From the NCBI GenBank assembly GCA_965216725.1, contig CBDCGI010000005.1, positions 82,016 through 146,015 of the forward strand: a DNA stretch of 64,000 nt, in the 5' to 3' direction. The translations under genes were made by a program, and so were the position numbers. Below the pieces are notes generated by a model. That model was not told the origin of the DNA. It was given only the letters and a program-made list of their open reading frames with translations, and made no database searches. The DNA is from Acidimicrobiia bacterium. Its GTDB lineage: Bacteria; Actinomycetota; Acidimicrobiia; Spongiisociales; ZC4RG35. This document shows positions 19,638 through 41,028 of the stretch, piece by piece (position 1 is the first letter of the stretch; each line of letters starts with the position of its first letter).

Positions 19638-19675
19638 GCCCTCTTGCCAAATTGTGGTTTCGTTGCTGGCAGTCC

Positions 19676-19751
19676 CGACCGGATTCGAACCGGCGTTTCC
19701 GGCTTGAAAGGCCGGCGTCCTAGGCCTCTGGACGACGGGACCAGGGCAAGC
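19676..19751 (-). tRNA. tRNA-Glu (anticodon UUC)
   Basis: rc = GGTCCCGTCGTCCAGAGGCCTAGGACGCCGGCCTTTCAAGCCGGAAACGCCGGTTCGAATCCGGTCGGGACTGCCA. The cloverleaf folds, the anticodon loop is CTTTCAA, and CCA is encoded. It lies immediately downstream of gltX. Confidence 0.85.
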
Positions 19752-26175: not shown

Positions 26176-27171
26176 TCAGCGGAAGAATTCCACCCACTCT
26201 CCGTGAGGATGAGCCTGGCCCACCTCTTCCCATCCCGATCCGTCATCGATTGCGACCCGGGCCCAGTCGTCGGTTTTGACCAGCACTTCCATCGAGACTC
26301 GGTACACGGGCCGTCTCGACCGAGCCTCGTGGACCATCTCGTCGAGCTTCTCCCTCTCCTCAGGGGTGAACTGGATCAACACGAACGAGTTGAGAATGAC
26401 GGCCGGTTCTCCTGCGGGCAGGCCGTCGAGAACCGGGGGCAACGTTGCCAGAGCGTCACCGGCGAGCGTGGTGTGCTCCACGGCTGCCAGGACGTCGAGC
26501 GCGGCAGTGAGTCGGTGCCGTCTCTCCGACAACTCGGGCCAGATCAGCGCGTCCAGCCATCTCCGTTCCTCCGGAGATGTGATGTCCACTGGATGAAGAT
26601 CGAGCCCCGTGCGGGACAGGACGTTGATGTCCCTCGGCTTCGGCGCCTCACCTCTCGACTCGGCGTCGATGGTCAACGAACCGTCGCCCCAGGTCAGGGA
26701 ATTCCAGCGATACGCATATCGGTCCAGGGCGAGGTTGAGACCGGCACTGGTGCCGAGGTCGATGAGGTGGAACCGGTCGAACGTTGACAGCCAGATCCCC
26801 GGAAGGAGGACGGCGCAACGACGACATTCGTTGGTCTGGGTGAGCCGGGTTCGCCCGATCTCGACCAGCGTCTCCTCGTTGGCAAGCACAAACTCGGAGA
26901 ACGGCTGCCCCACTCCATCAGGCGACAGTGGCTCATCTACCAACGAGGCGTAGTAACACGCCAGATCGGGGTCCGCACCCTGAGCCAGGAGGAAGTGGAC
27001 ACCGGCAAATAGGAGGTTGGGGCGTGGTTGGTTCTCCATCCGATTCAGGACCCGCATCAGATCCTGGCTGGCTGCCACGACCTCGACCAGACGTCTATAC
27101 AGCGGCGACCCGTGTGCGTGTTTTCCCCAAGCCAGCACGTATTCCGGTGTGACAGGAGGGTGTTTGCTCAC
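26176..27171 (-). CDS. DUF2332 family protein
   Basis: The 331-aa ORF has LIDLGTSAGLNLALDRY and VLNSFVLIQF blocks recalled from DUF2332. No search was run. Confidence 0.4.
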   Translation of the reverse strand: MSKHPPVTPEYVLAWGKHAHGSPLYRRLVEVVAASQDLMRVLNRMENQPRPNLLFAGVHFLLAQGADPDLACYYASLVDEPLSPDGVGQPFSEFVLANEETLVEIGRTRLTQTNECRRCAVLLPGIWLSTFDRFHLIDLGTSAGLNLALDRYAYRWNSLTWGDGSLTIDAESRGEAPKPRDINVLSRTGLDLHPVDITSPEERRWLDALIWPELSERRHRLTAALDVLAAVEHTTLAGDALATLPPVLDGLPAGEPAVILNSFVLIQFTPEEREKLDEMVHEARSRRPVYRVSMEVLVKTDDWARVAIDDGSGWEEVGQAHPHGEWVEFFR

Positions 27172-27806
27172 ATCTCAGAGCGCCGGTAGGCAGTGGCGAG
27201 GGCGTCGGCATACTCATTCCAACGATTGCCGGCGTGTGCTTTCACCCACTCGATCTTCACCCGAGGACGGGCCTTGGCCAGCTTGTAGGCCTCCTTCACC
27301 AGCTCCAGGTTCTTGATCGGCCCCGGTGACTTTTTCGTCCAACCCCGCTCTTCCCAGCCCTTGGCCCATTGGTTGAGAATGTTGACGATCAGCTGGGAGT
27401 CAGTGAAGACGGTCACATCCGAATCTGGGGACAGCATTCGGAGCCCGGCGATCATCGCCTTCAGCTCCATGCGGTTGTTGGTGGTGTCCGGGTCCGACGC
27501 ATAGGCCTGGTCGACAACCTCACCGTCGACCACGTATACGGCGCCCCACCCACCCGGACCGGGGTTTCCTTCCGAGGCTCCGTCGGTGAAAACTCCCGTT
27601 GACGGACCGTCCGTATAGCGGTCGAGGACTTCGGCGACCGTCAGATCACGTGACTTGGTGAGGCTGGGTGCCCTGCTCGCTGACTTCGACTCAGCCGACT
27701 CGCCGTTCTTGCAATTCAGGCATTGACGAGGAGTCCAACCCGGATACCGGTCGAGGATCTCTTGGCGTACCTCAAAGTCACGCCCGCAGGTCTGACAGGT
27801 GAACAT
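27168..27806 (-). CDS. rnhA: Ribonuclease HI with an N-terminal Zn-ribbon (CxxC...CxxC) domain
   Basis: The start is MFTCQTCGRD at ~27806 with a GGAGG RBS. The RNase H blocks are FTDGASEGNPGPGGWG, TNNRMELKAMIAGL, VFTDSQ and EWVKAHAGNRWNEYADALA. The 120-aa upstream extension of the ORF is spurious. Confidence 0.8.
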   Translation of the reverse strand: MFTCQTCGRDFEVRQEILDRYPGWTPRQCLNCKNGESAESKSASRAPSLTKSRDLTVAEVLDRYTDGPSTGVFTDGASEGNPGPGGWGAVYVVDGEVVDQAYASDPDTTNNRMELKAMIAGLRMLSPDSDVTVFTDSQLIVNILNQWAKGWEERGWTKKSPGPIKNLELVKEAYKLAKARPRVKIEWVKAHAGNRWNEYADALATAYRRSEM

Positions 27807-27817
27807 CGGAGGCGAGC

Positions 27818-29050
27818 CTAGGACAGGGTCTCTAAGTGAGGCGCCACCGCGTAGTCGAGAAGCAACGGCCCATCTTTGGTCAACGCGACGTGCGTCACTG
27901 AGGCGTTCGGAGGCGTGAACAGCGCCTCTGCGTGGGTTTCCCTCACGGAGGTCAGTGACGACACATACGACCTGATGGCCCCGCCGTGAGCCACCACCAC
28001 CGTCACTCCGGTTTGATCGGGGGTCAGATCGTGCACGGCGCCGCGGAATCTCGCCGTCAACTCGCCCCAAGATTCTCCGGTCTCTCCGCGTTTGAGGTCG
28101 ACCCCGTCTCGATAGATGGTCTCCATGCGTCCCGGCCAGCCGTCCATGATCTGCTCCGAGGTGAGGCCCTCCCAATCACCCATCGATAGCTCTTTCAGGT
28201 CCTCCACTTTCACGACTCCATTGCTGGCCACCTGCTCCGCGGTCTGCGCTGCCCGAAGCAGCGGCGAGGAGTAGACCGTTGGATGACGCCCGTACCACTC
28301 ACTCAGCGCGGCAGCCTGTGCGACTCCCAACTCGTCCAGACCCCAGTCGCCCTGACCCTGCCATCTCCTCTCGACGTTCGCCTGTGTGCGCCCATGCCGG
28401 ACGAGGGCCACGACCGGCTCCCCGGCCTCGAGGTGGCGGCCCACAGTCTTGGAATGCGGCCCGAAATGACCGGTGTCATTGAACGTCGCAAGCCGAGGCC
28501 GACCCCATGTCCAGGTGATGCGGTTCAGGGAAGCGTTCTCCACGAATGCGTGAGGACGGCTGTCTTTGCCGGCAAGATGACGGTGAAGGATGGTGCCCAG
28601 GACGCCACCGTGGGTGACGACAGCGGCACTTCCTTCCTCACCAAGTCTTTCGGCAAGCCCGTCGACGGCGGCGAGAGCACGCTCGCTTACCTGTCGCAGT
28701 GATTCACCGGTCTCTCCGACGGGGACCGTGGGGTCGGACAGCGATCTCCGGAAACGCTTCCCGGCCTCGCCGCGCAACTCTTCGAACTTCATCCCATCGA
28801 GCTGGCCCACATCGATCTCGAGAAAGGCACCGTCCATCTCATATTGCTCGGCGAATGATTCTGCTGTGGCCCGGGCTCGTTGCAGCGGCGAGCTGACGAC
28901 AAGATCGAACCGAAGGTCGGCCAGCCGTTCACCAAGATGCTTCAGACTGGCATCGCCCGCCTCACTAAGGCCGTGATCGGTCCGACCGCTAAACACCCGG
29001 TCGACGTTTGCAGTCGACTCGGCGTGGCGTATGAAAGTGATCTCGGCCAT
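27818..29050 (-). CDS. Histidine phosphatase superfamily protein with two tandem domains (phosphoglycerate mutase / CobC-like)
   Basis: Two RHxxS/T catalytic motifs are present: FIRHAESTAN and LVRHGRTQAN. It lies immediately upstream of rnhA. Confidence 0.75.
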   Translation of the reverse strand: MAEITFIRHAESTANVDRVFSGRTDHGLSEAGDASLKHLGERLADLRFDLVVSSPLQRARATAESFAEQYEMDGAFLEIDVGQLDGMKFEELRGEAGKRFRRSLSDPTVPVGETGESLRQVSERALAAVDGLAERLGEEGSAAVVTHGGVLGTILHRHLAGKDSRPHAFVENASLNRITWTWGRPRLATFNDTGHFGPHSKTVGRHLEAGEPVVALVRHGRTQANVERRWQGQGDWGLDELGVAQAAALSEWYGRHPTVYSSPLLRAAQTAEQVASNGVVKVEDLKELSMGDWEGLTSEQIMDGWPGRMETIYRDGVDLKRGETGESWGELTARFRGAVHDLTPDQTGVTVVVAHGGAIRSYVSSLTSVRETHAEALFTPPNASVTHVALTKDGPLLLDYAVAPHLETLS

Positions 29051-29069: not shown

Positions 29070-29906
29070 GTGAAGTGCATTGAGAGAAACCGGAAGAGCG
29101 GCTTTACTGTTCCCGAGGTGAGAGGGACAAGAATTCTCGGGCTGCGAAGTTTTGTGCTGGTCGTGGTCGTGGTGTTGGCGGCTACGGCGTGCGGGGACGA
29201 CGGGATTCCCGATCTGGAAGCGCCTGTCGGAGAGCAGGTGCTGCCTGACCTGGTGCCGGTCCCACCGGAAGACCTAAGGGTCACGTTCAAAGACGATGGA
29301 TCGGCCGAAATCAAGTTCAGCTCGACCGTGGCCAACATCGGTGGGGGAGATTTCGTCCTCCGGGCAAACGAAGTCTTCGACCAGTGGACGGTCGACCAGG
29401 AGATTCATTACTCGGAGTCAGGAGGGATCCTCCAGGACATCGATGCCGAAGTGATTTGGGGTGGCGACGGTCACGAGCACTGGCACATCAGTCGCGTGGC
29501 TACCTACCAACTGTTCGCAATGAACGCCGATGACTCCCTCACGAGGCTCGATCGCTTCGACACCAAGGTCGGTTTCTGCTTCTTCGATCACACTCGCGTC
29601 CAAGATTCTGGACCGGAGTCCTTCGTGTATCACGTTGAGGAATGCGGCACAGAGGGCGATCAAGAGATAAGAATGGGCTTGTCGAGTGGCTGGTCGGACG
29701 TCTACGACTTCGGCCTCCCAGGTCAGAGCATCGATATCACAGGGCTCGAAGACGGCAAGTACCGGGTCGAAGCGACCGCCGATGAGGCGGCTTGGTTCGC
29801 TGAAGCTGACGTCAGCAACAACACCACATGGGTTGACTTTGAGCTGCAAACAATGGACGGTCGACCCTTTGCGACTGTCGTCGCCGTTGGGCCGGATCCG
29901 CGATAG
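29070..29906 (+). CDS. Secreted or lipid-anchored lysyl oxidase-like copper amine oxidase homolog
   Basis: A signal peptide is followed by LAATAC. HEHWH (aligns with HxHYH Cu ligands), K-VGFCFFD (with KASFCLED, LTQ Lys) and GLSSGWSDVY...IDITGLEDGKYRV...ADVSNN (with the GCYDTY...ITDV..G.Y.L...NN LTQ-Tyr region) match the animal LOX catalytic domain. Confidence 0.5.
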   Translation: MKCIERNRKSGFTVPEVRGTRILGLRSFVLVVVVVLAATACGDDGIPDLEAPVGEQVLPDLVPVPPEDLRVTFKDDGSAEIKFSSTVANIGGGDFVLRANEVFDQWTVDQEIHYSESGGILQDIDAEVIWGGDGHEHWHISRVATYQLFAMNADDSLTRLDRFDTKVGFCFFDHTRVQDSGPESFVYHVEECGTEGDQEIRMGLSSGWSDVYDFGLPGQSIDITGLEDGKYRVEATADEAAWFAEADVSNNTTWVDFELQTMDGRPFATVVAVGPDPR

Positions 29907-30001
29907 TTCGCCAACATCTTCTCACCACGGAGAGTGACAGATGTGTATAGTGATTCCGAGCCTGCCGTGGGGGCAGGGAGCAATCGAAGGGTTGGGAATC
30001 T

Positions 30002-30388
30002 ATGAAGAGACGCTGGATCACTGCGCTTATTGCAACAGCCGTTGCCATGACGTTGGCGATTCCGGTCGGTGCTGCGGATCTACACGAAGATCACAAGGGA
30101 ACCGACTGTGAGCACGGCATTGTCCTGCTCCATTTCGTCAACGCTCAAACTGACGGTACGGAATGGGCCGGAACTATCACCGTGATGTTGGACGATTGGG
30201 ACAATGGTGGAACGACGATTGTCCAGACGGCCGACAAGGTGAACAAGAACACTCAGCACTTCTGGGTACCGATGGAGGGTGGCGACATCTCGGATTACGA
30301 AGAGCTGATCAACGCATCCACCGACTTGCCCGGCAAGCTGGTCCTCAGCGACTACGAGTGCGACCCCGGTAAGAAGGGCAAGAAGTAG
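30002..30388 (+). CDS. Small secreted hypothetical protein
   Basis: It has a signal peptide (MKRRWITALIATAVAMTLAIPVGAA). It is 128 aa with two Cys. A strong terminator follows. Confidence 0.5.
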   Translation: MKRRWITALIATAVAMTLAIPVGAADLHEDHKGTDCEHGIVLLHFVNAQTDGTEWAGTITVMLDDWDNGGTTIVQTADKVNKNTQHFWVPMEGGDISDYEELINASTDLPGKLVLSDYECDPGKKGKK

Positions 30389-30410: not shown

Positions 30411-30442
30411 ACATGAAACCCCCGGCAGTGCCGGGGGTTTCT
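30411..30442 (+). terminator. Rho-independent terminator
   Basis: aaacccccggcagtgccgggggtttctcttt is a GC stem followed by a T tract. Confidence 0.75.
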
Positions 30443-30493: not shown

Positions 30494-30799
30494 GTGGCCA
30501 GGAGACCTTCAGCACAAACCCAAGCAGTCATCCACCACCTCCTGAGTAGCGGACGCCGGTGGAGCCACGGCTACGACGTTTCAACTGCCCTCGGGATCGC
30601 CTCCGGAACGCTCTACCCGATACTGATGCGGTTTCACGACCGGGGGATCATCGAAACCCGGTGGGAGGACTCCCCGCTCGAAGGTAGGCCCCGACGTCAC
30701 CTCTGCCGGCTCACTCCCGAAGGTGAAGATTGGGCCCGCGAGGTTCTCGCCATTGTGCCAGGGACGCTGTCCACCCGACCTGCGGAAACCCCAGCGTGA
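30494..30799 (+). CDS. PadR family transcriptional regulator
   Basis: GYDVSTALGIASGTLYPILMRFHDRGIIETRWE...GRPRRHLCRLTPEG is the PadR winged helix. An AT-rich region with a short inverted repeat (ctcta-N6-tagag) lies upstream at ~30457-30475. Confidence 0.7.
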   Translation: MARRPSAQTQAVIHHLLSSGRRWSHGYDVSTALGIASGTLYPILMRFHDRGIIETRWEDSPLEGRPRRHLCRLTPEGEDWAREVLAIVPGTLSTRPAETPA

Positions 30800-31299
30800 A
30801 CGTCCTCAAACTGTTCCCGTCAACGAAGCGGGAATGGGCAGAAGAGATGCTCAACGGCGATCACAGCGGGCTGGCGATGTTGAAATTGCTGGTTCTGGCA
30901 TGGATCCTCACCCTGAGATCAGACCGGGCCATGAGAACGGCCCTGACCACCCTGAGTCTCGTCAACATCGTTGCCGGGATCGGCCTCGGCGCGCTCATAG
31001 CCCTCACCGATACGCCGGTCGTGGTGACGCTCCTCGCCGGAGTATTGATCCTCCAAGGCGGATACACCCTCTTGGCGACACGAGCACACGAGCGCCCCCT
31101 GTCGGGTCGGATCTGGCTCATCGGAGAGACCCTCGCGCTGACGGTTGGCGGCGGGGGCCTTCTCGTCTCAACCGTCAGGAATGCCGGAGCCGTCGACCCC
31201 GAATACGGACCGATGACGGTCGCCATCCTCCTCACTGCCCACGCTGTAGTGGGCCTGACCGTTTTATCGAGGTCGGTCCGACCCCGATCCAGCGCTTAG
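30796..31299 (+). CDS. PadR-associated integral membrane protein (4-5 TMS), unknown function
   Basis: The GTG start overlaps the padR stop. The product is hydrophobic. Confidence 0.5.
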   Translation: MNVLKLFPSTKREWAEEMLNGDHSGLAMLKLLVLAWILTLRSDRAMRTALTTLSLVNIVAGIGLGALIALTDTPVVVTLLAGVLILQGGYTLLATRAHERPLSGRIWLIGETLALTVGGGGLLVSTVRNAGAVDPEYGPMTVAILLTAHAVVGLTVLSRSVRPRSSA

Positions 31300-33347
31300 A
31301 TAAAGGCCGAGGCGAAAATCAGGGAAACGATGGTCATAACCTTGATGACGATGTTCATCGCTGGGCCTGAGGTGTCCTTGAAAGGATCGCCAACTGTGTC
31401 CCCGATCACGGCCGCGTGATGGGACTCACTCCCCTTGCCACCGAATGCTCCGGTCTCGATGAACTTCTTGGCGTTGTCCCAGGCCCCGCCGGCGTTGGCC
31501 ATGAAGATGGCGAGCAAGAAGCCTGTTACCAGCGCCCCTCCCAGCAACCCTCCGAGCATCTCAGGGTCATAGAACCCGACAACGAGAGGCAAGGCAATGG
31601 CGATCGCCCCTGGGATCACCATTTCCCGGAGAGCGCTAGCCGTGGCGATATCAACACAGGTCGTGTAATCCGGCTTTGCCTCGGGGTCACCGTCTTTGAG
31701 CCCGGCGATCTCACGGAACTGACGCCTGACCTCGTCGATCATCTTTCCGGCCGCTCGGCCGACCGCGTTCATAGTCAACGCCGCAAAGAGGAACGGGAAC
31801 ATCGCACCTAGGAACAGCCCGATGGTCACCGGCGCCGAAGAAATGTCGATGGAGTCCAGATTGACCGCCTCGGTGAAGGCGTTGAACAGAGCCAGGGCGG
31901 TAACGGCCGCAGAAGCGATGGCGAAACCTTTGGCGACTGCAGCTGTGGTGTTGCCCAGCGAGTCAAGCGCATCCGTCGCCTGTCTCACCTCCGGCTCGAG
32001 GTGCGCCATCTCGGCAATCCCACCGGCGTTGTCGGCGATGGGTCCGTAGGCGTCAACGGAGATGGTGATGCCCAGAGTGGCGAGGACGCCGATCGCCGCA
32101 ATGGCGACACCGTAAATACCTCCTCCATCACCCATGGCCCACTCACCCGCGGCGTAAGCCGCACCTATGCCTCCGGCGACAACGATCACCGAGAATGCTG
32201 CAGAGCGCATCCCCTCTGCCACCCCAGAGATGATGACCGTTGCCGGACCGGTCTGGGACTGCCGGGCAATCTCCTTGACTGTCTTGTAGTGGTCGGAGGT
32301 GAACCACTCCGATATCTTCCCGACCAGCCAGCCCACGATGAGGCCGGCTACAACAGCAATCCAAATACCGACCCAATTGTCGATCTTGTCGCCGAAGATC
32401 CAAGCCGCCAACCCGGCCACACCCAGAGCGGTGACGATCATGGCGAAGTTGGTCCCACGGTGGAGAGCCGCCGCAAGGTGACCCTCGTCTTTGGCCTTCA
32501 CCAGGAACGAGCCGATGATCGACGCGAACATCCCTAACGCGGCAACGGCCAGCGGGAAGATGATGGCCTCAGACACAAAACCTGCACTGCCGAAAACCAG
32601 GGCGGAGTAGGCGACGGGGGCAACCAGTGCTCCGACGTAGCTCTCGAAGAGGTCGGCACCCATCCCTGCCACGTCTCCGACGTTGTCACCAACGTTGTCG
32701 GCTATCACAGCTGGGTTGCGGGGGTCATCCTCGGGAATCCCGGCCTCTACTTTGCCCACCAGGTCGGCGCCGACGTCGGCAGCCTTGGTGTAGATACCGC
32801 CGCCGACGCGAGCAAATAGGGCAATCGAGGAGCCACCTAGTCCGATAGCGGTAACGATCTCCACCCACTGCGGCTCTTCGAGGACGTTGTTGAAGAGCCA
32901 GAAACCGAGACCCACCCCGAGGAGCCCGAGACCGGCGACGGTGAACCCCATCACTGCGCCCCCACGGAAGGCGATGGGAAGGGCGGCAGGAATGCCTCCC
33001 TGGCGGGCGGCCTCAGTCGTGCGGGCGTTGGCTGCGGTGGCAATACGCATGCCGACGAAACCGGCGGCTGCGGAGAGTACAGCTCCGAAGACATATGCAA
33101 TGGCGCCCCAGGGTCTGCCCCAATCGAGAAGGGCGGCGATGAGGATTGCCATCACCACCACGAACACCGAAACCCAGGTGTACTCCCTCTTGAGAAAGGC
33201 CATGGCGCCGTCCCGAATCGCCGAGGAGAGCTCGACCATCCTCTCGTTGCCCTGGGGTGCGGCCAGGACCACTCGCGTGTAGTAGACCGCAAGCAAGACG
33301 GCGAGCGCACCCGCGACAAGCGCGATATACAGAATCGTGTCCGACAT
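31296..33347 (-). CDS. hppA: Membrane-bound proton/sodium-translocating pyrophosphatase
   Basis: The 683-aa ORF has about 16 [27 protein letters not shown] and [10 protein letters not shown] motifs are present. Confidence 0.9.
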
Positions 33348-40850: not shown

Positions 40851-40926
40851 TTGGCAGTCCCGACCAGATTTGAACTGGCGTTTCCGGCTTGAGAGGCCGG
40901 CGTCCTAGACCCCTAGACGACGGGAC
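40851..40926 (-). tRNA. tRNA-Glu (anticodon CUC); attL, target of the island
   Basis: rc = GGTCCCGTCGTCTAGGGGTCTAGGACGCCGGCCTCTCAAGCCGGAAACGCCAGTTCAAATCTGGTCGGGACTGCCA. The cloverleaf folds and the anticodon loop is CCTCTCAAG. Confidence 0.85.
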
Positions 40927-40956
40927 CATGTTGTCGGTCGACCATTATCGACCTCG

Positions 40957-41028
40957 CTCGGGGGGAAGGACTCGAACCCTCAATAACGGGACCAGAACCC
41001 GCCGTGTTACCGATTACACCACCCCCGA
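40957..41028 (-). tRNA. tRNA-Gln (anticodon CUG), CCA not encoded
   Basis: rc = TCGGGGGTGGTGTAATCGGTAACACGGCGGGTTCTGGTCCCGTTATTGAGGGTTCGAGTCCTTCCCCCGAG. It has a 7-bp acceptor stem with U1-A72, a 4-bp D stem, anticodon loop TTCTGGT and T-loop TTCGAGT. Confidence 0.7.

Follow-up and report, generated by a model that had tools for sequence, protein, structure and literature searches.

A bacterial lysyl oxidase-like lipoprotein gene paired with the gene of a small secreted protein carrying a lysine tail

Introduction

A stretch of 64,000 nucleotides from an Acidimicrobiia bacterium (GenBank assembly GCA_965216725.1, contig CBDCGI010000005.1, positions 82,016 to 146,015; this whole stretch is hereafter the window) carries on its forward strand, at 29070..29906, an open reading frame (ORF) of the lysyl oxidase (LOX) family. 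We find that this gene is the first of a conserved two-gene cassette, the second gene of which (30002..30388, forward strand) encodes a small secreted protein with a C-terminal tail that is rich in lysine and nearly devoid of arginine. A tail of the same kind, consisting of a cysteine, a spacer, and two lysines, recurs in a second, unrelated protein family encoded beside more distant LOX genes. Taken together, and with a probability that we place at roughly 0.5 for the reading as a whole, these genes would specify an envelope LOX that oxidizes the tail lysines of its co-encoded partner for covalent cross-linking.

Lysyl oxidases are central to the animal extracellular matrix. Prokaryotic relatives have been reported from five bacterial phyla, including the Actinobacteria, where they mostly comprise a single domain accompanied by a signal peptide or a membrane anchor (Grau-Bove et al., 2015; PMC4448552). 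Refolded and loaded with Cu2+, the LOX of the archaeon Haloterrigena turkmenica (HTU-LOX) is an active amine oxidase that is sensitive to beta-aminopropionitrile (BAPN) and acts on lysine-containing polypeptides; its specificity is relaxed, extending to many primary amines, aminoglycosides, and polymyxin, and roles in nitrogen acquisition or in competition have been suggested (Pestov et al., 2019; PMC6452851). The authors of both studies describe the native function of the prokaryotic enzymes as enigmatic or cryptic. By itself, the LOX gene of the window is a further member of this already known bacterial family. Its conserved lysine-tailed partner turns the question of what a bacterial LOX does into a direct two-protein experiment, one for which the cultured genera Nocardioides and Jiangella, which possess the cassette, are at hand. 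In the literature that we searched, which leaves most subscription journals outside, a bacterial LOX with an operon partner is not described, and neither the cassette nor the cysteine-spacer-lysine-lysine tail was found.

A conserved two-gene cassette

The partner gene encodes 128 amino acids and belongs to an unannotated family without a Pfam hit, which we term the type-1 partner. It follows LOX on the same strand after a gap of 95 nt (29907..30001), in which a Shine-Dalgarno-like stretch (GAAGGG/GGGA) stands just 5' of the partner ATG and in which a terminator scan found none. An intrinsic terminator lies 27 nt past the partner stop codon (30415..30441, forward strand), where a hairpin with a 12-bp GC-rich stem is followed by UCUCUUU; its minimum free energy is -27.8 kcal/mol (z -2.6), and 0 of 200 shuffled sequences fold as well. 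A sigma-70 promoter scan upstream of LOX found nothing, which says little for this phylum. We read LOX and partner as a bicistronic, co-transcribed unit closed by a strong terminator. The original prediction, made from the letters of the window, had missed the second gene and portrayed LOX as a lone insert in a housekeeping region, a description that the cassette overturns.

The pairing is strict across genomes. A scan of species representatives, one genome per species, yielded 121 confirmed LOX loci, 80 of which were kept for locus counts; these derive from Acidimicrobiia, Nocardioides, Jiangella, Gaiellaceae, Amycolatopsis, Haloechinothrix, and many Chloroflexota. When a neighbour-joining tree was built from the 80 catalytic regions, the window grouped within a clade in which each member with room for it has the partner. 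Profile searches located the partner directly 3' of LOX and on the same strand in 25 of the 25 loci of this clade that have enough downstream DNA (L001-L006, L008-L017, L019-L024, L026, L034, and L039), which span Acidimicrobiia, Nocardioides, Jiangella, and Gaiellaceae; two further loci of the clade, L007 and L018, were left out of the count, their DNA being cut at the LOX gene. When all neighbouring ORFs were clustered all against all, LOX and the partner emerged as the sole genes common to different taxa, the remainder being within-genus synteny. An apparent fusion of the two genes in Nocardioides ganghwensis (L021) was rejected as a stop-free off-frame read, LOX ending there normally with ...VGPEPG and a stop codon.

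The reverse test started from the partner, using 80 partner-anchored metagenome loci that were fetched with a tight partner alignment. In 61 of these 80 loci, or in 61 of about 62 that are informative, the partner has a LOX-family ORF no more than 460 nt away; among the other 19, 16 extend for under 300 nt in the direction in which LOX is expected, too short to tell, and L149 and L152 are semi-informative, with just 274 nt downstream. Both gene orders are seen in this set, four of the pairs are divergent, and lysine is present in every one of the 79 complete tails. Single look-ups of two additional family members with lysine-containing tails (P0173 and P0192) placed them next to PF01186 genes as well. 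Judged from both directions, the partner is in all likelihood functionally coupled to LOX.

The lysine tail

Following its invariant Cys120, the partner of the window ends in the tail DPGKKGKK (30362..30385, forward strand), the proposed site of LOX action. In the structural model described below this segment has a low predicted local distance difference test score (pLDDT, 65), and it is presumably flexible. Across 121 family tails, lysine accounts for 19.4% of residues and arginine for 0.5%, while the lysine content of the partner body is 2.2%; at least two lysines are found in 105 of the 121 tails, and 98 have a lysine within the last three residues. Most tails are either simple and lysine-rich (EDVKKK, DEKKGDPEPDPKK) or bracketed by cysteines (ETKEPPKCDPKTDPNCK), and a few are Pro/Thr linkers without lysine. 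The long ORFs of the window have the opposite composition (lysine 1.9%, arginine 8.9%), and among the 472 stop-to-stop segments of the window that reach 70 amino acids or more, only the partner ends in KK. Within the partner body, lysine and arginine interchange freely at position 112 (80 K, 15 R). Because a tail maintained for charge alone would be expected to use arginine, as position 112 indeed does, the composition points to selection for lysine itself, with its epsilon-amine, and not for positive charge.

Several variants depart from this picture. Two members with lysine-free Pro/Thr tails (P0154 and P0205; L085, L087, and L088) are not adjacent to LOX (2 of 2 checked), and their neighbours, among which are HTH_17 (excisionase-like) and DUF5906 genes, suggest a mobile-element context. 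A third apparently lysine-free member, P0206, does stand beside LOX (L086:3001-3400); its called end results from a contig frameshift, and the tail actually reads ...PKEPPPCDPKTEVCPK. Genes for a DsbA-like thioredoxin and a TonB-receptor-like protein lie upstream at the same locus, so that the cassette also occurs outside the Actinomycetota and Chloroflexota. P0125, P0169, and P0170 have Cys/Asp-rich repeats in place of the tail or as an extension of it, and these repeats match PF11617, the MopE-type "putative metal-binding motif." Asp-Pro-Tyr-rich tails (CDPYYDPYCDPYGSG), with tyrosine in place of the lysine of the usual Asp-Pro-Lys frame, are found in P0133, P0138, and P0139; the contig of L089, which belongs to this subgroup, is too short for a view of LOX adjacency.

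A second partner family with the same tail

A screen for lysine-rich, arginine-free C-termini, applied to all 4859 ORFs of the 80 LOX loci, recovered the type-1 partners together with a second small secreted family, likewise without a Pfam family, that is encoded beside more distant LOX genes. Profile searches place this second family in nine loci (L025, L029, L031, L035, L036, L038, L040, L044, and L045) from Actinomycetota and Chloroflexota, its gene being located upstream or downstream of LOX; examples are L036:5400-5804 and L029:1956-2381, and the motifs of the family are GNPSC, VKGGPN, and NGKxYGLSHLC. All nine proteins end in a cysteine and a short lysine-containing tail, and eight of them end in KK (...SHLCFFFGDKKNPDPKK, ...SHLCFFTAKK, ...SHVCVFTDKK), the exception being L025, which ends ...EFCFDPKA. 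Homology between the two partner families was considered and rejected, as hhalign matched the signal peptides alone, at a probability of 6%.

The association of such endings with LOX can be quantified. Segments that end in KK followed by zero to three residues number 30 of 976 within 700 nt of LOX versus 2 of 5158 farther away (odds ratio 82; Fisher p 3e-22). Because it is the tail that the two unrelated partner families share, the cysteine-spacer-lysine-lysine ending is the feature tied to LOX.

An acidic lipoprotein with the LOX catalytic fold

The LOX ORF starts with GTG and encodes 278 amino acids plus a stop codon, with the catalytic domain at approximately residues 50-278. Each motif quoted in the original prediction (GDGHEHWHIS, TKVGFCFFD, GLSSGWSDVYDF, IDITGLEDGKYRV, and ADVSNN) can be read in its translation. 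The hidden Markov model search that had been recommended there returns the Pfam family PF01186 (Lysyl_oxidase) with an E-value of 1.6e-7 and 31.7 bits, against a curated cut-off of 20.4. The match is partial, with residues 134-258 of the ORF corresponding to profile positions 83-193 of 204. NCBIfam contains nothing significant for this ORF, and a Pfam scan at E <= 10 gave PF01186 and a sub-threshold Y_Y_Y only, with no match to the topaquinone (TPQ)-type copper amine oxidases (PF01179).

Among proteins in the PDB, human LOXL2 (5ze3) is the sole sequence match, with an E-value of 0.0024 when the single sequence serves as query and of 1.4e-5 when a 30-sequence family profile does; the latter also aligns an N-terminal RFSS..N.G..DF motif (kFSStvaNiGgGDF with LOXL2 RFSSQIHNNGQSDF). 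In the HMMER alignment, the putative copper-binding triad H135-E-H137-W-H139 (29472..29486, this and the following codons on the forward strand) is matched to HRHYH of LOXL2, and the putative lysine of the lysine tyrosylquinone (LTQ) cofactor, K166 (29565..29567), to the lysine of HKASFC. The putative LTQ tyrosine, Y212 (29703..29705), falls on the tyrosine of DMYRHD. C170 (29577..29579) and its presumed disulfide partner C192 (29643..29645), aligned to the cysteines of SFCLED and YECANF, respectively, would form the single retained LOX disulfide. We take the LOXL2 counterparts to be H626/H628/H630, K653, Y689, and the C657-C673 disulfide, in agreement with the offset of the 5ZE3 construct. 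All seven residues are present without exception in both sets of homologues, 30 of 30 and 80 of 80. Failure to obtain a PF01186 match, or loss of the catalytic lysine or tyrosine on a proper alignment, had been named in advance as fatal to a LOX assignment; PF01186 matches above its cut-off, and K166 and Y212 are kept in all 80. Apart from C170 and C192, the only cysteines of the ORF are C3 and C41, the latter in the lipobox, so that the earlier remark on the absence of most LOX disulfide cysteines was correct.

Structure prediction, another check proposed at the outset, leads to the same family. An AlphaFold2 model built with 30 homologues has a mean pLDDT of 89.3, exceeding 90 from about residue 50 onward. 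A Foldseek search of the PDB with this model gives two significant matches, both of them chains of LOXL2 5ze3 (E 6e-8, probability 1.00, approximately 245 aligned columns), with a TM-score of 0.51 when normalized to the full query including its signal peptide; all matches other than LOXL2 have E > 0.02. As the match extends over approximately 245 columns, the entire mature protein is, according to the model, one LOX catalytic domain that reaches beyond the Pfam-aligned half. The description of the gene product as a bacterial LOX-like secreted protein is thus supported by the PF01186 score, the fold match to LOXL2, and the invariant catalytic residues, and the ORF very probably encodes an active amine oxidase of the LOX family.

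The N-terminus would direct this enzyme out of the cytoplasm. A GTG at 29118 (V17) is probably the true start, since the signal peptide then has a typical length of 24 residues versus 40 from 29070; the ORF would accordingly be annotated 16 codons too long. From this start, a lipoprotein signal peptide (29118..29192, forward strand) can be read up to the lipobox Cys41 (codon 29190-29192; LAATAC before GDD). Judged by pattern alone, the basic n-region, the hydrophobic h-region, and the lipobox are all present (..RGTRILGLRSFVLVVVVVLAATA-C41-GDD, VLAATAC). Cys41 and the glycine that follows are conserved at 90% or more in 30 homologues, as "ACGG" (..A-C-G-G), and the signal and lipobox region described in the original prediction is real, its cysteine being nearly invariant. 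Mature LOX has a pI of 4.06, with 48 Asp+Glu versus 14 Lys+Arg. The protein is, by these signals, predicted to be an acidic lipoprotein, lipid-anchored at the outer face of the cytoplasmic membrane.

Distribution and anchoring of prokaryotic LOX

A protein search with the window LOX recovered 257 homologues at E <= 1e-3, most of them at 43-57% identity. Many of the 257 match PF01186, and for a few, from Ilumatobacteraceae and Acidimicrobiia, the name on record is already "lysyl oxidase" or "lysyl oxidase family protein." In the scan of species representatives, the nearest homologues, at 53-54% identity, are encoded in metagenome-assembled genomes of Acidimicrobiia. With hundreds of homologues in Actinomycetota and Chloroflexota, with 121 confirmed loci, and with bacterial LOX on record since 2015 (PMC4448552), the view that the family is rare and sporadic in bacteria is out of date.

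Partner-less homologues from Chloroflexia have C-terminal extensions, and the one that was compared with Pfam has three S-layer-homology (SLH) domains (PF00395, 60.7 bits) after LOX. By a regular-expression count, at least 22 loci have SLH-type repeats in the reading frame of LOX, and these loci form one clade in the tree of 80. Such fusions without a lysine-tailed partner occur in L043, L051, L056, L058, L060, L061, L065, L066 (for example, L066:5809-7152), L068-L070, L079, and others. Their architecture suggests that the SLH-fused Chloroflexia enzymes are wall-anchored, and a predicted envelope location is thus common to both clades, through the lipobox in the clade of the window and through SLH domains in Chloroflexia.

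The partner protein

The partner of the window begins with a Sec-type signal peptide (30002..30073, forward strand), in which MKRRWITALIATAVAMTLAIPVGA precedes ADL at the predicted cleavage site; the A-x-A junction before A[DE]L is conserved in the alignments. Profile searches gathered 173 relatives, all unnamed or "hypothetical" and without a Pfam domain in the body, and 509 family members at E <= 1e-3 were retrieved when 1.8 billion cluster representatives were searched exhaustively. Six residues do not vary (C36, H44, F45, L113, S116, and C120), and H86 is near-invariant. AlphaFold2 models the partner as an all-beta sandwich of 7-8 strands (pLDDT 80.4), with low confidence for the last residues. 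Foldseek finds no match for this model in the PDB at E <= 1e-3, the best being generic jelly-roll and carbohydrate-binding module (CBM)-like folds at E >= 6.5e-3, and the partner profile matches no PDB sequence below an E-value of 0.4. The partner was also considered as a sortase substrate and rejected as such, its C-terminus ...DLPGKLVLSDYECDPGKKGKK (...LSDYECDPGKKGKK) having neither an LPXTG motif nor a hydrophobic segment, as is the case for the tails across the family.

A proposed mechanism and its alternatives

In the mechanism that we propose, a lipid-anchored, extracytoplasmic LOX would form LTQ from K166 and Y212 beside a copper ion held by H135, H137, and H139. The strongly acidic mature enzyme (pI about 4.1) would bind the cationic tail of the partner, a mode of capture that its acidity fits, and would oxidatively deaminate one or more tail lysines at the epsilon-amino group to yield allysine, NH3, and H2O2. 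The resulting aldehyde would condense spontaneously with a nearby amine or with a second allysine, so that the partner would become cross-linked either to further partner molecules or to a different component of the envelope, the end product being either a partner polymer or an attachment to peptidoglycan or the S-layer. The spontaneous reaction of allysine into covalent cross-links is established animal LOX chemistry. We give even odds to the central step, namely that the tail lysines are the substrate of LOX. The role in envelope-protein cross-linking contemplated in the original prediction fits our findings.

A broader and more tentative proposal is that these genes represent a novel cross-linking system, in which cysteine-spacer-lysine-lysine would be a portable tag acquired independently by two families, LOX would convert it to allysine, and the tagged protein would be polymerized or bound to the wall or S-layer; we consider this somewhat doubtful as a whole. 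It would amount to a sortase-free oxidative route in Actinomycetota and Chloroflexota. Should the tail prove to be the substrate, it would be the first physiological substrate identified for a bacterial LOX, and its modification the first native function ascribed to any LOX from a prokaryote; it would also reveal a new mode of covalent surface-protein cross-linking and provide a compact enzyme-plus-tag pair for protein conjugation.

Several observations weigh against oxidation of the partner tail. About 46 of the 80 LOX loci are without such a partner, which consequently is no general need of bacterial LOX. One partner gene with a lysine-containing, Cys-rich tail (L155:3836-4378) has 3.8 kb of upstream and 1.9 kb of downstream DNA without LOX, and is the sole clear exception among the about 62 informative partner-anchored loci. 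The two invariant cysteines of the partner, together with one invariant and one near-invariant histidine, could instead make a metal site. Finally, the promiscuity toward small amines of the sole characterized prokaryotic LOX (PMC6452851) means that a dedicated protein substrate is no given.

The alternative that best survives these considerations, although we regard it as unlikely, makes the partner an accessory factor, such as a copper chaperone, a helper in cofactor maturation, or a docking or regulatory subunit, and assigns to LOX other envelope proteins or free amines as substrates. Strict pairing alone leaves the direction of the relationship open, and a precedent exists in LodA and GoxA, which need the adjacent LodB and GoxB for cofactor maturation. 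Copper could be bound by the invariant C36, H44, and C120 and the near-invariant H86, and the PF11617 motif in the tails of a few family members is annotated as putatively metal-binding. A copper-chaperone identity (CopC, PCuAC, Sco, or cupredoxin-like) nevertheless found no support in Pfam, where 58 members of the family match no copper-chaperone family, or in PDB sequence and Foldseek comparisons, where nothing of the cupredoxin, CopC, PCuAC, or Sco type was matched by sequence or by fold, and the partner is without conserved methionines or CxxC motifs. Moreover, LTQ formation in animal LOX is a self-processing reaction. A chaperone role would not account for a tail with lysine only and no arginine, and the second, unrelated family has the cysteine-lysine-lysine tail in common with the first and none of its histidine positions.

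Less probable still is that LOX is a broad-specificity surface amine oxidase, serving in nitrogen scavenging, in the detoxification of amine antibiotics, or in the production of H2O2 against competitors, with a neighbour that is loosely related to this activity or unrelated to it. Refolded Haloterrigena LOX oxidizes many primary amines, aminoglycosides, and polymyxin (PMC6452851), more than half of the sampled LOX loci have no partner, and a general role in amine scavenging or H2O2 production is possible for the LOX family at large. Such a role for the LOX of the window is difficult to reconcile with pairing in 25 of 25 loci of its clade and in 61 of about 62 loci viewed from the partner side, or with the convergence of two partner families on the same tail; in addition, the enzyme appears to be tethered to the envelope, by a lipobox or, in Chloroflexia, by SLH domains, and not freely released.

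Lastly, that the likeness to LOX is merely structural, the protein being a beta-sandwich without catalytic activity or the match a product of chance, could be argued from the pairwise identity to LOXL2 of about 18-20%, the modest single-sequence E-value, and the retention of one animal disulfide and no more, but is very improbable given a Pfam score above the curated cut-off, the far better E-value of the profile with the N-terminal motif included, the Foldseek probability of 1.00 with LOXL2 alone significant, and the conservation without exception of all five catalytic residues in 80 divergent sequences, as would be expected if the enzyme is active.

Genomic surroundings

The window has a GC content of 61.8%. 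Upstream of LOX lie genes for a DUF2332 protein (26176..27171), an RNase H (27168..27800, reverse strand), and a double histidine phosphatase of 410 amino acids with two tandem PF00300 domains (27818..29050, reverse strand), the last being divergent from LOX and 19-67 nt from its start. Past the partner are a PadR-family regulator (30494..30799, forward strand), a hydrophobic membrane protein of 189 amino acids without a Pfam hit (30730..31299, forward strand), whose gene overlaps that of PadR, and an H+-pyrophosphatase (31296..33347). These six neighbours were considered as parts of the system and rejected, as they have no counterpart beside LOX in the 80 loci, and the PadR and 189-residue protein genes (30494-31299) are a separate unit located beyond the LOX-partner terminator.

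The RNase H has an N-terminal CxxC...CxxC segment resembling a zinc ribbon (MFTCQTCGRDF...CLNCKNG). Its longest ORF, from 28175, shares about 360 nt with the upstream phosphatase gene, and for this reason the real start is probably internal. At gathering score, Rfam matches nothing in the 64-kb window apart from three tRNA genes, all on the reverse strand (19670-19742, 40855-40927, and 40957-41028).

Comparison with known systems

Animal LOX and LOXL1-4 share their catalytic domain with the window LOX by the criteria of Pfam, sequence profile, and predicted fold. Common to both are the HxHxH motif, the lysine and tyrosine of LTQ, the RFSS..N.G..DF motif, a disulfide flanking the LTQ lysine, and an extracellular location. 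Animal LOX prefers cationic substrates, and in both cases an acidic enzyme faces lysine-bearing proteins, with the substrate on the window side being a candidate. The differences are nonetheless considerable. Identity is about 18-20%, a single one remains of the five disulfides in the animal catalytic domain, and the window enzyme has neither a propeptide nor a scavenger receptor cysteine-rich (SRCR) domain, possessing instead a predicted lipid anchor at its lipobox. In place of collagen and elastin, its candidate substrate is a co-encoded protein of 104 residues with a C-terminal KK tail.

The prokaryotic LOX described previously, among them HTU-LOX and the "actinomycetal LOX" group, likewise have a single domain with a signal peptide or anchor, the histidine triad, and the LTQ residues, differ in how many cysteines they contain, and are present in Actinobacteria (PMC4448552; PMC6452851). 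No conserved neighbour gene is mentioned in either study, whereas the LOX clade of the window is defined by an obligatory lysine-tailed partner. HTU-LOX is reported to be promiscuous toward small amines (PMC6452851), whereas a dedicated protein substrate is proposed for the window clade.

A two-gene operon, the lysine epsilon-amine, and H2O2, the latter two as proposals on the window side, also characterize LodA and GoxA, although fold and cofactor differ. These secreted amine oxidases carry a quinone cofactor, the copper-free cysteine tryptophylquinone, and are encoded in two-gene operons with an obligatory flavoprotein, LodB or GoxB, that matures the cofactor; LodA acts on the epsilon-amine of free L-lysine and produces H2O2. 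In contrast to the flavoproteins LodB and GoxB, the partner of the window is a small secreted protein, modelled as a beta-sandwich, without a flavin domain.

A parallel in the realm of covalent surface assembly is offered by the sortase/LPXTG systems and the spore-coat transglutaminase Tgl, in which an enzyme stands beside substrates that bear a short C-terminal tag for covalent linking outside the membrane. This likeness is a functional analogy only, with no homology involved, and the chemistry proposed for the window pair would be oxidative, proceeding from an aldehyde to a Schiff base or aldol product, and not transpeptidation.

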